Virus record (IMG/VR): IMGVR_UViG_2602041863_000001
Coordinates: 1-4,844 of that record
Reading direction: 5' to 3' (one strand)
Length of the DNA stretch: 4,844 nt
Source of the DNA: a virus
Taxonomy: Duplodnaviria > Heunggongvirae > Uroviricota > Caudoviricetes
Below the pieces are notes generated by a model. That model saw only the letters and a list, made by a program, of their open reading frames with translations. It did not search any database and was not told the origin of the DNA. Positions 1-4,844 of this stretch are shown in pieces (positions within the stretch are counted from its first letter, which is position 1; each line of letters opens with the position of its first letter). The translations under genes were made by a program, and so were the position numbers.

Positions 1-2454
1 AGTTCCATTCCCCACCACCGTGCCACTTGATGCACCATCCAGCCAGTCGAAATTCATACCGCCACTGTTTGGTCTCCTTAATGGAACGGTATGAGTATGT
101 GCGCCAGCACTATTTGCAGTACCAGATACATTGTGGGTATGTGCACCTGTGTTATTCGTTGATTTAGTACCGTAATCAAACGAAGATGTGGTTTTCGTAC
201 CCAAATCCGTATTGGATGCGCTGGCGCTGTGGGTGTGCGATTTAATGCCATCCTGTTCCAGAGACAATACGTCCCGACCACTGGCGGGTTTGCCCTTGAT
301 TGTCCAGCCACGCATATCCGGGATCACGCCTGACGGATAAGCGGCTGCAAGTTTCGGGTATGCAGATTTGTCAAAAGTCTGTCCCTGCATCAGGGCGTAA
401 CCAGACGGCACAGTATCTGATGGCCACGGCAGCGGAACACCTGGCGGAAACGCTTCAATATTTGCCGAGCCGTCAAATTTTACGCCGTTAATTGTCCTTG
501 CCGTTTTCAGCTTTGTTGCTGTAGCAGCATTGCCGGATAGTTCGCCTGAAAGACCACCGCTGAATGTCTGTTTCGCCGCCCATGTCTGAGCTTCGTCGAT
601 AATTGGCACACGTCTTGTCGTAATCGTGCGGCTTCCCGGATTTCCTGAAATGCGAACCATAAAAAAGCGGTAATTCGCTTTACTTACAGTGCTGCGCCAT
701 ACATGCATTGAGCGCCCCGTACCAGAATCATCACTCGGACCAACTGCGATGTTTATCAGGTTGCCATCAATGACGCCCCAGTCCATACCGTCGGGAATAT
801 TGGTCATGTTATCAAGCCGAACGGTTATCAGACTGCCCGGCACAAAATCGTAGGTCTGCCAGTCCAGGCTGGTGAGTTTTGCCACTGCGCCACCGATACC
901 CAGATTCAGGGGAAGTGAATAAGATGTGTAAACTTCCCGCCATTCGCTCCACGAGCTGCCGGTATAAACGCGCTCAAACGTGCGACCTTTAAGGGTTGCA
1001 CCTGTTCCGGCGGTTGTATAACGTTGCCATACGTTAACGCCATCAAAGCGCCTCAGCACTTCCAGAATACCGAGTACAGTCACGCCGTTTCCGTCCAGTA
1101 TTGGACCATTGGTCGCTTTACCTGTAACGCTGTAAATACCTGGTGAGGTTACATCATTCAAATCACCGTCGTAATAACGGCTTTCTGACTGGTAGCCCAC
1201 TCTTGACCACGGCTCCCATTGTGGGTTCTCTGCATCCCACGAGGCCGAAAGACAGCGAACATAAACATTTCCACGGCGGGTCGTGTAACGCTGCGTTCGC
1301 GAGTAACCACCACCTTCAAGAACTTCAAGGAGTCCCTGACCATAACTTCCTTCTTCCGGATAGTTGCGGTCAAATGAAGCGATTGAGCCACTACTGTTTC
1401 GCCATAAACCAAGATGCTCTGCGCCTCCGAGCGTGTTCAGGTCAATGGTTGTGCTCAGGGGGCGTGTTGCAGACTGAACCTGACGCCAGTAACTCCACGG
1501 ACCGTCTGAACCATTCCATGTGCCAGAAAGGTTGCGCATATAAACATTGCCTGTTCTGGTGGTGTAACGCTGCATTCCTGCAAAATTACCGCCATTGAAT
1601 ACCTCCAGTACACCGACTGCACCGTCTTCAGGGAAATTTTTAGCAGCCGTCGCGTTAGTGGATGTAGCTTTAGACCAGACGCCAAGATAAGCCTTAACGG
1701 GACCAAATGTATTCAAGTCAGCATCAAGCGGCATTTCGCCATTGTTTTTCATAAACGTCAGGCTGGTAACGCCAACATTGTCCAGAAAAGCGCCCTTATC
1801 TGGAATATCGTCACCGTTCTGGTCTTTCTGCATACGTTTTTCAGCATTGTCATAGGCTGCTTTTACTGCCTTTGGCGTTGCCGCCAGCTCTTCACTGGTG
1901 CTGTTTGTTGCGCTACTTAACTGAGTAAAACCTTTTTCTGTCAGCGTGGCGTCAGGATGGCGGCGGGATTGCTCATGCTCTGCGATTTTGTCATCGACGT
2001 AATCCTGCGTCGCCATCACTGTGCTGGCATCAATACTCAGCTCAACGGACGCTACGTTGCTGACAGTAATAACCATGCGGCAGGTCTGCGCGCGCCCGGA
2101 GCCTTCAGCGAGTTCAGGCTTATAGCTTTCCGCCATGTTAGCGACCGCAATCAGTGTTCCGGCATCGTCATACAGACCCAGCTCACGCATCCAGAAGCCG
2201 CCCACTTCTGGCGGTACAACCAGTTCAGCCACGATATAGTTTTTATTCTTGTTATCCACGCTGACTTTATTCAGAGCGTGACGCCAGACCTCATGCACCA
2301 GTTTCGTCTGACCGGCATCCGGCACCGGCAATTTGCCATTACCGTCACCCACGGCCATTGCAGACAGAGTTACTTTTTTCCCGCCGGGGACAGTGGCGGC
2401 TGCCAGCTTCGCGGCTCCGGCAGTAGTGATAGCGGTTTTAAATTTCGTGCTCAT
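1..2454 (-). CDS. phage side tail fiber protein (lambda Stf / P2 gpH type); 5' end complete, 3' end runs off the window start (818 codons in window)
   Basis: ATG at 2454-2452 on the minus strand, preceded by GTGAGAAACA and the TAA of the upstream frame. I hand-translated every codon down to position 1 and found no stop. This ORF is absent from the supplied track, apparently because it has no stop inside the window. N-terminus [63 protein letters not shown]...[18 protein letters not shown] is the conserved virion-proximal domain shared by lambda Stf, P2 gpH and Mu S. Conserved linker motif [27 protein letters not shown] at about 457-537. Tail-collar-like segment [33 protein letters not shown] at about 304-402. 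His-x-His motifs (HTH at 229-237; AHTHNV and AHTHTV within about 91-144). Confidence 0.9.
931..1608 (-). repeat. three tandem protein-level repeat units (about 90 aa spacing) inside the tail fiber shaft
   Basis: Hand translation shows three related units: [44 protein letters not shown] (about 1477-1608), [44 protein letters not shown] (about 1198-1329) and [45 protein letters not shown] (about 931-1065). Short nucleotide identities only (e.g. cagcgttacac, aatgtttat), so this is an old duplication rather than a recent one. Confidence 0.55.
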
Positions 2455-2464
2455 TGTTTCTCAC

Positions 2465-2827
2465 TTATCCGGGATAAACAGTAATAACATCACCATCACA
2501 GACCACACCGCCTGTATACAGATAGCCGGGAATGTCCTGGATAATGTTCAGGCCGATAAGGTGGCGACTTGCGGGTTTGGCATCGGCAATCAGCCGTTCC
2601 ATTTCCAGATACATTTCCTCGGTCACACCACTGTCCAGCGTGCCAACATCAACCTTGAATGTTCCGGGTTCGCCGTCGAACTCCCACCACTCAGACACGC
2701 GAATGAGGTATCCCAGCGGCTCAATGGCCCGGCGCAGTGCGCTGATGGTCCCTTTGTGTCGGTGTAACCGCGCTTCGCCTTCTGCGTCGCGGTGGTTTTT
2801 CGTGTTGCAGGCTTCCGCGTTGTCTTT
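2465..2827 (-). pseudogene. open frame without ATG or RBS immediately upstream of the tail fiber; possible 3' remnant of a baseplate gene (P2 gpI position). The track's 77-aa ORF 2465-2698 is its GTG-initiated tail
   Basis: The frame is open for 120 codons from the TAA at 2828-2830 to the TAA at 2465-2467, which lies 10 nt before the fiber ATG. Translation: KDNAEACNTKNHRDAEGEARLHRHKGTISALRRAIEPLGYLIRVSEWWEFDGEPGTFKVDVGTLDSGVTEEMYLEMERLIADAKPASRHLIGLNIIQDIPGYLYTGGVVCDGDVITVYPG. The only start in the track is GTG at 2698 with no Shine-Dalgarno upstream. The assignment rests on position (in P2 the baseplate gene I directly precedes H); I cannot verify homology from memory. Confidence 0.35.
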
Positions 2828-3564
2828 TTACTTTTGCTGCTTTCGTCCTGCGCCTGCGGTGTGCTGGCGTCTTCTGGTTCGGCTGCGGAATCGGCTTTTT
2901 TCAGGGCGCGGGAAAGGGTTGCAATCTCGCGTTTCACACCTGCGTTCGGGTTCAGGTGCATCGCTTCGCGCAGCAGCTTCAGTGATGAGGCCATGCTGTC
3001 CGCATCGCTCAGGCCACGGCGGGCAAAGGCGCACGCCTTGCATAATTTGGCGCGCACTTCGTCCGGCATATCCTGGTTGGCGACAATTTCCCAAAGTGTG
3101 TCCAGTGGTTCGATAAAGGCGGACAAATCCGCGTCGGCATCCGTCCCGGCCTGCGTCAGTACCGGGTTGCAGATTTCTTCGGTCAGTACCGTGGCAGCAG
3201 TACGGCCAAAGTTATCCGGCATGATGAGGTTGTGACGGACCACATACGCACCAATACGCAATGCCAGCGGAAGATCGCCGCAGTCAATCGCCCACACCAT
3301 CAGCGTGGCAATCACCTCATCTTGCTGCCCGCCGTCAGCCTCCAGCGTTCCTTCAATCCAGCCGGAAAAGTCCGGTAACAACTCTTTTTTGATGGCGGCT
3401 TTGGCGCTTCTGGCCTGTACGCCCTTAAGTCGGGCCTGTGCCAGACGCAGACGATACAGCACCTCTTCATGCGCGGTACGTGCGGCGTGATCCACGCCTT
3501 CATTCGCCCGGCCTGCGCGCTGCGCCATCACGTTCTGCCAGTGTTGCTGTGCAGGGGTAATCAT
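2623..3564 (-). CDS. phage terminase endonuclease / small subunit, P2 gpM family (313 codons; the last roughly 50-65 codons look like a read-through extension)
   Basis: ATG at 3564-3562 with GGAGAG 5 nt upstream. The protein MITPAQQHWQNV...KKELLP...LMVW..D.GD...AL.I..Y...............TEE...DMPDEVRAKL...AGVKREI..L...LK followed by a basic K/R/T-rich tail matches my recollection of P2 gpM (MTSPAQRH...KRELLP...DMPDEVRAKLHK...AGVKKEIERLEREL...) at roughly 35-40% identity. The ORF is longer than P2 gpM (about 247 aa as I recall), and the C-terminal GPSAHCAGPLSRWDTSFACLSGGSSTANPEHSRLMLARWTVV has an odd composition. Confidence 0.8.
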   Translation of the reverse strand: MITPAQQHWQNVMAQRAGRANEGVDHAARTAHEEVLYRLRLAQARLKGVQARSAKAAIKKELLPDFSGWIEGTLEADGGQQDEVIATLMVWAIDCGDLPLALRIGAYVVRHNLIMPDNFGRTAATVLTEEICNPVLTQAGTDADADLSAFIEPLDTLWEIVANQDMPDEVRAKLCKACAFARRGLSDADSMASSLKLLREAMHLNPNAGVKREIATLSRALKKADSAAEPEDASTPQAQDESSKSKKTTRKPATRKTTATQKAKRGYTDTKGPSAHCAGPLSRWDTSFACLSGGSSTANPEHSRLMLARWTVV

Positions 3565-3569
3565 TCTTT

Positions 3570-3575
3570 CTCTCC
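3570..3575 (-). promoter_or_regulatory. Shine-Dalgarno sequence (GGAGAG) for the gpM-like gene
   Basis: Minus-strand sequence reads GGAGAG-AAAGA-ATG, giving 5-nt spacing to the start codon at 3564. Confidence 0.5.
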
Positions 3576-3581
3576 GTTACA

Positions 3582-3600
3582 GGCGGGCATGATGCCCGCC
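3582..3600. repeat. perfect 19-bp palindrome GGCGGGCAT-G-ATGCCCGCC (GC-rich hairpin) in the capsid-fragment/terminase intergenic gap
   Basis: Read directly: 3582-3590 ggcgggcat, 3591 g, 3592-3600 atgcccgcc (exact reverse complement). It lies 10 nt after the TAA of the capsid-like frame (3610-3612) and 18 nt before the gpM-like ATG. No U-tract follows on either strand, so it is not a canonical intrinsic terminator. Confidence 0.6.
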
Positions 3601-3609
3601 GTGAGTTGA

Positions 3610-4068
3610 TTAGCTGTCGGCGAACTTCAGGCCTGTGACCATCGCGCACTTGCCATAGTCTTCAACGACATAAGCGTCATTGATGGACTGGTAGGTGGCG
3701 ATGCGGTTGTATTCCGGCTCGTCTTTCATCAGGCGACGCATTGAGCCTCTCTGCCAGTAAATTGACAGGTTGTTGAATGAGGTGATCAGCATCGTTGCAT
3801 CCGGGAAGAACGGCGCAAGGAATACATCCAGCCCACCAATGGTGCGCGATGACAGGATGAGCTGTCCGGCGAGTAATTCCGCATTGGGATTCTGGCCGCT
3901 GATGCTGTTCAGCACGGGCAGACGCAGCGAGTTAAACAGGTTGCGCCCCATAATCACCACGAGGTCGTCTGCTTCCTTGTGCCATTCATCCAGCAGGGAT
4001 GAGCGCGCGTCCTGTATCCGGTTTGCGTACAATTTCAAATCCCTGCGGTGCAATGATGCTGCCGTCAA
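3610..4068 (-). pseudogene. C-terminal fragment (about 150 codons) of a P2-family major capsid protein (gpN-like); N-terminal roughly 200 codons absent
   Basis: Translation ...DEWHKEADDLVVIMGRNLFNSLRLPVLNSISGQNPNAELLAGQLILSSRTIGGLDVFLAPFFPDATMLITSFNNLSIYWQRGSMRRLMKDEPEYNRIATYQSINDAYVVEDYGKCAMVTGLKFADS aligns with the C-terminal third of P2 gpN as I recall it (...PWYQEDPDLVVIVGRQLL...YFPADAMLITKLENLSIYY...RR...NIDYVVEDYAAGCLVEKIKVGDFS). The frame is closed by a TAA at 4087-4089 just upstream; the only start in the track is TTG at 4068; the preceding gene overlaps it out of frame. Confidence 0.6.
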
Positions 4069-4844
4069 CGTACAGGCTGCCGCCCCTTAACAGGTGCTGC
4101 ATCTGCTGTTCACCGATATGCAGGCCGAGAGATTCGGCAGATTCCCGCCATTCTTTAGCGAGTAATTCGTGGTTATCAGGCAAAGGCCGCTGCTGTTTGC
4201 GGCTCTGTGTCCAGCTCTGCATTTCATCACTGCTGTTTTTTGCCTGTTTGTCACGCAGCGAACGCATCAGCGCCCGGCGTTCGTGCCGTTTCAGTGAGCG
4301 CATCCAGTCATCCACATCAACGCCGTCAGGAAGCTGCGGCCACAGTGCTGGCCGTTCTTCCGGCTGTTCTGTCCCGTTGTTGTCCGTTTCCTGTACACGG
4401 GGACAGTTATTGCCACGGGTCCAAGGGGCGGCAGGGCCGCCCTGAAGGTCAAAACCATTTTCGTGGGCGTTGTCTTCCGGTTCTGGTTTACGTCTTACCA
4501 GCTTCCAGTTATCCGGATGCGTGCACACACGGGAGGATTCCCCGATGAGTGGTGACCAGATCCCGTAAATCTGTACGCTCTGTTCGCCGTAATCGTTCAG
4601 CTCATCTGCGAGGTCGTAGGCGGTGCGAATCAGGTAGTCCTTGCGTGGAACAAGCACGCCACCCTGTTTTTCAATGTAGGTGGCAAAACACCCGGCATCG
4701 GCGGCAGCGAGTACCGCATCCATTGCATCATCTTTCAGCCGTTGCGGGCCTTCCGGATTGCGTGCCATCTGGCTGGCAAGGCGGCGCAGTTCACGCCACA
4801 CCTGACGGGAGGGGATGCCAAAGAACTGGAACTGACGGACCCGG
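3986..4844 (-). CDS. hypothetical protein, 5'-partial (open to the window end); charged, Pro/Glu/Arg/Gln-rich, function unknown
   Basis: The frame is open from the window edge to the TAA at 3986-3988 (286 codons: RVRQFQFFGIPSRQVWRELRRLASQMARNPEGPQRLKDDAMDAVLAAADAGCFATYIEKQGGVLVPRKDYLIRTAYDLADELNDYGEQ...DDWMRSLKRHERRALMRSLRDKQAKNSSDEMQSWTQSRKQQRPLPDNHELLAKEWRESAESLGLHIGEQQMQHLL...). The track start at 4801 is a GTG; the real start is upstream of the window. The overlapping plus-strand ORFs are Cys/Ser/Arg-rich antisense artefacts, which supports minus-strand coding. The last about 30 codons overlap the capsid-like frame and are probably out-of-frame read-through. Confidence 0.45.
   Translation of the reverse strand, partial: RVRQFQFFGIPSRQVWRELRRLASQMARNPEGPQRLKDDAMDAVLAAADAGCFATYIEKQGGVLVPRKDYLIRTAYDLADELNDYGEQSVQIYGIWSPLIGESSRVCTHPDNWKLVRRKPEPEDNAHENGFDLQGGPAAPWTRGNNCPRVQETDNNGTEQPEERPALWPQLPDGVDVDDWMRSLKRHERRALMRSLRDKQAKNSSDEMQSWTQSRKQQRPLPDNHELLAKEWRESAESLGLHIGEQQMQHLLRGGSLYVDGSIIAPQGFEIVRKPDTGRALIPAG

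Follow-up and report, generated by a model that had tools for sequence, protein, structure and literature searches.

The terminase small subunit gene (gpM) of the stretch of DNA analysed here ends in a C-terminal extension that is overlapped by a long open -1 frame. The two features together are almost certainly a deletion scar in a decaying P2-like E. coli prophage and not a programmed frameshift. The whole stretch, 4,844 nucleotides long and called the window below, is part of a defective P2-like prophage of the P88/Xuanwuvirus type in E. coli. A 5,194-bp deletion with a TA microhomology has brought the two leading bases of the gpM stop codon up against codon 76 of the tail gene I, probably by illegitimate recombination or replication slippage. 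With TAA changed to TAC, translation of gpM would enter gene I DNA off-frame and continue for 47 codons. Both peculiarities of the locus follow from this: there is a 313-codon gpM ORF because the gpM stop codon TAA became TAC, and there is a long -1 frame because that is where the gene I remnant has its own reading frame. The initial annotation, made from the letters alone, had also judged a deletion scar likelier than a -1 slip, and that judgment is now backed by a junction mapped to the base, by the 5.2 kb found to be missing and by pseudogene calls in RefSeq.

The native end of gpM and the deletion junction

The 313-codon ORF runs on the minus strand at 3564..2623. Its product is a P2-family terminase small subunit, matching Pfam PF05944 (E = 1.6e-36) over the full profile, positions 1-130, which places it in the P2 gpM family. 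The synteny is also that of the family, with a C-terminal fragment of the capsid gene N immediately upstream. The gpM of Escherichia phage P88 (Xuanwuvirus; YP_009113070.1) is encoded by a CDS of 801 nt and is 266 aa long, ending in ...KAKRG-TAA. The native part of the window gene equals it in length and C-terminus at about 97% DNA identity, and the two share the basic Lys/Thr/Arg tail and a T AAA AAG heptamer at codons 245-247. What differs is the sequel. In P88, 101 nt of intergenic DNA separate the TAA from gene L, whereas in the window the corresponding codon is TAC and is followed by gene I from codon 77 onward. The close relatives in IMG/VR agree with P88. The set comprises 80 loci, one of which carries the window junction, leaving 79 intact relatives; gpM is 266 aa in 78 of the 80, and the TAA stop is present in 79 of the 80.

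These comparisons revise where the abnormal part of the ORF begins. The initial annotation had put the heptamer roughly where P2 gpM would end, which is numerically right (P2 gpM is 247 aa) but misleading, since the native gpM in the clade of the window has 266 aa. It had asked for intact homologues to be consulted on the native stop, and these place it not at the heptamer but 19 codons downstream, at 2766-2764, where intact genes have TAA and the window has TAC. Likewise, the roughly 66 zero-frame codons that had been described as odd in composition are all there, running on past codon 247, but the first 19 of them are the native gpM tail, and the abnormal, scar-derived part amounts to 47. 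The Lys/Thr/Arg-rich stretch that directly follows the heptamer belongs to the tail that gpM normally has in this clade.

The junction itself was located in two ways. In a megablast search of phage genomes with positions 3700..2400, the matches break abruptly at 2765/2764. Positions 3700-2765 are about 96-97% identical to the capsid and terminase small subunit genes of P88-like phages (Xuanwuvirus), and positions 2764-2400 match the 'tail protein I / tail fibre' entries of P2-like phages. In a three-way, base-by-base alignment of the window, P88 gpM and the intact gene I of FORC_031 (175 aa), the window is gpM through 2765 (...GGT TA) and gene I from 2766 (TA C ACC GAC...). The breakpoints cut into both ORFs: the gene I remnant is without its own N-terminus, and the gpM stop codon is disrupted. 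On the Pfam profile PF09684 (Tail_P2_I), the remnant matches only positions 70-139 of 139, and it does so in the -1 frame. Its DNA is 100% identical to the intact gene I of both FORC_031 and RIVM_C019217. No Pfam domain was found in the 47-codon extension. The coordinates of these features are collected in Table 1.

Table 1. Features of the window around the gpM extension, with the genes lost at the junction.
Feature	Position	Strand	Description and basis
Tail fibre gene H, 5' part	1..2454	minus	ATG 2454-2452; 885 aa in full-length copies; runs off the window
Tail/baseplate gene I remnant	2465..2764	minus	Codons 77-175 of 175 plus stop; -1 frame relative to gpM; Pfam PF09684
Read-through extension	2623..2766	minus	47 codons, YTDTKGPSAHC...ARWTVV, plus TGA (2625-2623); gene I DNA read one base off-frame
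Former gpM stop codon	2764..2766	minus	TAA in intact phages, TAC (Tyr267) here; base-by-base three-way alignment
Deletion junction	2765..2766	minus	2-nt microhomology TA (gpM stop codon / gene I codon 76); three-way alignment
gpM tail bridge, heptamer to gene I remnant	2767..2827	minus	About 21 native codons, stop-free in the -1 frame by chance
Native gpM coding part (P2-family terminase small/endonuclease subunit)	2767..3564	minus	266 codons, ends ...KAKRG; PF05944 and comparison with P88
T AAA AAG heptamer	2824..2830	minus	Ser245 third base, Lys246, Lys247; codons 245-247 are AGT AAA AAG; direct reading
Second deletion scar, gpA fused to the middle of capsid gene N	4014..4016	minus	3-nt microhomology TAC; context 3986-4844
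Lost genes	5,194 bp of the RIVM_C019217 prophage		Head completion L, X, holin, M15 endolysin
Lost genes, continued	5,194 bp of the RIVM_C019217 prophage		DUF2570 (lysB-like), small overlapping ORF at the lysC position, tail completion R, S
Lost genes, continued	5,194 bp of the RIVM_C019217 prophage		Baseplate V, W, J; first 76 codons of gene I

The missing DNA can be read directly from an intact prophage in E. coli RIVM_C019217 (L092). Window positions 1-2766 align to 740-3505 of that locus and window positions 2758-4016 to 8693-9949, with 100% identity on the I-H side and 96.8% on the M-N side. The flanks of the junction are thus 5,194 bp apart in the RIVM_C019217 prophage, and those 5,194 bp are absent from the window. 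The lost block comprises 11 complete genes and the 5' part of gene I. The junction is already known in annotation, as two pseudogenes: for identical DNA in NZ_CP024232 (E. coli O6:H16 2014EL-1346-6), RefSeq/PGAP records two abutting pseudogenes, a gpM 'missing C-terminus' and a 'phage tail protein I, missing N-terminus'.

In all of this the window is like other cryptic or defective P2-like prophage remnants of E. coli, whose internal deletions leave pseudogenes that are truncated or fused and that RefSeq/PGAP labels 'incomplete; partial in the middle of a contig'. The DNA on either side of its junction lines up in order with segments that lie apart in intact P88-type prophages, genes essential for morphogenesis and lysis are gone, and the breakpoints fall within ORFs at a tiny microhomology. 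Nothing essential sets it apart from such remnants. The one curiosity is that the breakpoint lies inside a stop codon, which leaves gpM with its full native coding sequence plus a 47-aa nonsense tail.

The heptamer and the open -1 frame

The layout that first drew attention to a possible frameshift is real. Direct reading places T AAA AAG at 2824-2830, over codons 246-247, with a -1-frame TAA (2830-2828) inside it, as had been reported; this is the sole -1-frame stop between 3214 and 2467. The -1 frame had also been described accurately, as running open over 120 codons and ending just short of the fibre ATG. It extends over 2827..2468 and is closed by TAA at 2467-2465, and the fibre ATG (2454-2452) lies 10 nt beyond its end. 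The frame is, however, a composite of 120 codons: the gpM tail supplies the first 21, which contain no stop, and the rest is the gene I remnant (codons 77-175) in its true frame.

Each element of this arrangement has an ordinary origin. The -1 stop at the "slippery" site is automatic, because any NNT AAA makes TAA in the -1 frame. The 21-codon bridge is of a commonplace kind, since 46% of 21-codon windows of this gpM are stop-free in the -1 frame. The gene I remnant would have landed in the -1 frame with a chance of about 1 in 3. The window has six copies of AAAAAG where 2.7 would be expected; three of the six lie in gpM, and at least six copies were found in 10 of 200 shuffles. The coincidence of heptamer and -1 opening that the initial annotation had thought worth a check is therefore built into NNT AAA and is no greater than chance expectation. 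T AAA AAG encodes Ser-Lys-Lys in the Lys-rich C-terminal tail of gpM and is nothing more than that.

Programmed frameshifting and other readings

One alternative is a programmed -1 frameshift at T AAA AAG, which would make a gpM-I' chimera here or, in intact phages, a gpM variant of 284 aa. In its favour, the heptamer has the right zero-frame register and is followed by an open -1 frame, and AAA-AAG is a slip-prone Lys-Lys pair in E. coli, as in sites of the dnaX and IS911 type. Even so, we regard programmed frameshifting as very improbable. The heptamer is non-canonical, departing from X XXY YYZ by its first base, T. A slip of the A-site codon from AAG to AAA is possible, but in the P-site the tRNA-Lys on AAA must re-pair on UAA, with a mismatch in the first position. 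The site resembles the P2 E/E+E' site (TTTTTTG) and A AAA AAG sites of the dnaX type in having a run of identical bases in the X XXY YYZ register and an open -1 frame, and with dnaX it has the AAA-AAG pair itself in common. It differs in being non-canonical through its first base, T, in having neither stimulators nor a -1 ORF conserved in relatives, in owing its -1 ORF to a deletion, and in lying in another gene than the known P2 site.

With respect to stimulators, the initial annotation had seen no convincing downstream structure, and folding agrees. The 84 nt downstream have a folding energy of -19 kcal/mol (z = -0.82), which 39 of 200 shuffles equal, and the only solid hairpin begins about 31 nt downstream of the heptamer, against the 5-9 nt expected for a stimulatory hairpin or pseudoknot. 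A good upstream SD-like element at the right spacing was not found; that side offers just a weak AGGA at a distance of about 15 nt. The missing downstream structure is not decisive alone, because the genuine P2 E/E+E' frameshift site is also without one (PMC3091744). In the literature searched, no -1 frameshift in gpM or another terminase gene of P2-like phages was found, and E/E+E' at TTTTTTG in the tail operon was the sole case in that group.

The T AAA AAG heptamer is identical in intact P88 and in 79 of the 80 close relatives, but this is uninformative because the identity among those loci is 97% or more. The -1 frame behind it is another matter. In 77 of the 79 intact relatives it reaches a stop within the M-L intergenic region after 37 codons and fuses to nothing, so that the long -1 ORF of the window is owed solely to the deletion. 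For a wider view, we compared nine divergent gpM genes, among them those from P2 (247 aa), Fels-2 (217 aa), a 186-like phage (249 aa), Aeromonas phage LPM4 (257 aa), Ralstonia phage RSA1 (240 aa) and three Klebsiella phages (217, 288 and 306 aa). By tblastn, homology ends at about residues 222-241. Beyond that point the tails vary in length, most are of low complexity, and the whole proteins range from 217 to 306 aa. The heptamer thus sits in a poorly conserved basic tail. Among these divergent genes, Lys-Lys heptamers are absent or at non-homologous positions, and the -1 peptides of P88, P2, Fels-2 and the Klebsiella phages bear no relation to each other. The search for the same heptamer and frame organisation in relatives, which had been suggested as a check, accordingly turned up neither a conserved heptamer in divergent gpM nor a conserved -1 ORF.

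Two of the divergent genes have Lys-Lys heptamers of their own. Klebsiella phage Kp4846-1 (L086) has a canonical A AAA AAG in the basic tail at gpM codons 277-278, and P2 (L084) has G AAA AAG at codons 243-244, four codons before the stop. Behind each of them the -1 frame stays open for 39-52 codons, reaching into the M-L intergenic region or across it, and the peptides bear no relation to each other. These heptamers are most likely a by-product of Lys-rich tails.

A fusion of terminase to baseplate protein would also be without a biological rationale, and the element lacks genes that virion production requires. As far as sequences can be compared, the frameshift alternative fails every available comparative test. 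With the native gpM stop located elsewhere and the heptamer not conserved in divergent homologues, the frameshift idea of the initial annotation does not stand. That the heptamer supports a biologically used -1 slippage, with a minor 284-aa isoform in intact phages and the gpM-I' chimera in the scarred prophage, would be a great surprise. Low-level spontaneous slippage on A-AAG by tRNA-Lys may nevertheless take place alongside a deletion scar.

A second alternative accepts the deletion and supposes that the host retains the 313-aa extended gpM as a functional neo-protein. Many assemblies do preserve exactly this 313-aa ORF, and the neighbouring fibre genes are intact in the lineage. Yet the extension is off-frame gene I sequence with no domain match, the copies are near-identical clonal DNA, which points to recent common descent and not to selection, and the prophage goes on losing pieces around the extended gene. 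Moreover, the O region, presumed to be the site of the O-N-M-L late promoter, is deleted in the version of the prophage found in the window. A selected fusion is extremely unlikely on these grounds, and the extended gpM is probably non-functional and without selected function.

A sequencing or assembly artefact has a negligible probability: a mis-join can give in-ORF breakpoints and a single-base error can destroy a stop codon, but the change is a 5.2-kb deletion and no point error, and an artefact is rejected because independent assemblies share the identical junction, namely two complete genomes, one IMG/VR contig, NCBI drafts, Logan SRA assemblies and ENA metagenome contigs from different projects.

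Distribution of the scar and stepwise decay of the prophage

The deletion scar is rare. The exact M-I junction is present in 2 of 5,426 complete E. coli genomes, whereas the normal gpM 3' end is present in more than 1,000, and among the IMG/VR loci it is confined to 1 of 80. The exact 313-aa ORF appears in 47 index blocks of public assemblies, which include NCBI drafts, SRA assemblies and metagenomes. Carriers include 2014EL-1346-6, B2C and GCA_000806245.1. This distribution, rare and lineage-restricted, indicates clonal inheritance.

The window also carries a second deletion scar (Table 1). There, a truncated gene for the replication endonuclease gpA (an 824-aa gene call in L097-L099) is joined to N at about codon 216, and past the scar the gpA frame continues for 10 more codons to a stop at 3986. 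Relative to the version of the prophage in L094, about 4 kb is gone at this point: the gpA 3' end, a parM-like cargo gene, portal Q, terminase P and the 5' part of N. GCA_000806245.1 and some metagenome contigs show the same gpA-N arrangement. The scaffold gene O region, which is deleted, presumably held the late promoter for O-N-M-L, going by the organisation of the P2 operon. Since the second deletion fuses gpA to the middle of N, the native late promoter would be gone in the window's version.

Carriers of the M-I scar differ from one another in what else they have lost. L002 and L093 retain Q, P and a longer N fragment, and the window type (L097-L100) is without them. Across L002/L093, L094, L097-L100 and L102, the extra deletions are P-N, parM-portal, gpA-N and H-tape-measure; in L102, a further loss between H and the tape measure gene T appears from truncated adjacent gene calls. 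FORC_031, a sister copy, has an independent O-J deletion beside I-H DNA that is 100% identical. The prophage lineage is thus decaying stepwise, with a shared M-I scar and later deletions layered on top of it.

Some genes have come through this decay. The tail fibre gene H is intact and 100% identical across many E. coli genomes, even where baseplate and head genes have been lost. A serine acetyltransferase (hexapeptide-repeat) gene, at 10801-11346 of L002 and therefore outside the window, lies between the fibre assembly gene and the tail genes and is read from the opposite strand. It is retained in all of the decayed copies and looks like moron-type cargo.

One locus was considered as an independent M...I deletion, which might have marked a hotspot, and was rejected. 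In E. coli EC9682 (hit H53; NZ_CP095271.1, L103), positions 2775-3708 have the order ...R S V W J I (pseudogene), then 'M (C-terminal 125 aa) L X holin lysin ... R S. The order at the junction is reversed, I followed by 'M, and the breakpoints are others; it looks like a tandem-duplication junction and is a different event from the window's scar.

The gpM extension carries little weight beyond correct annotation, being a feature of ordinary gene decay. It does illustrate that a stop codon clipped by a deletion can yield both a long ORF and a layout that seems ready for frameshifting, and such a locus should not be reported as recoding. For the biology of these elements, the locus is a tidy example of stepwise prophage decay, and its scars could serve as clonal or lineage markers for the ETEC-type strains that carry them.
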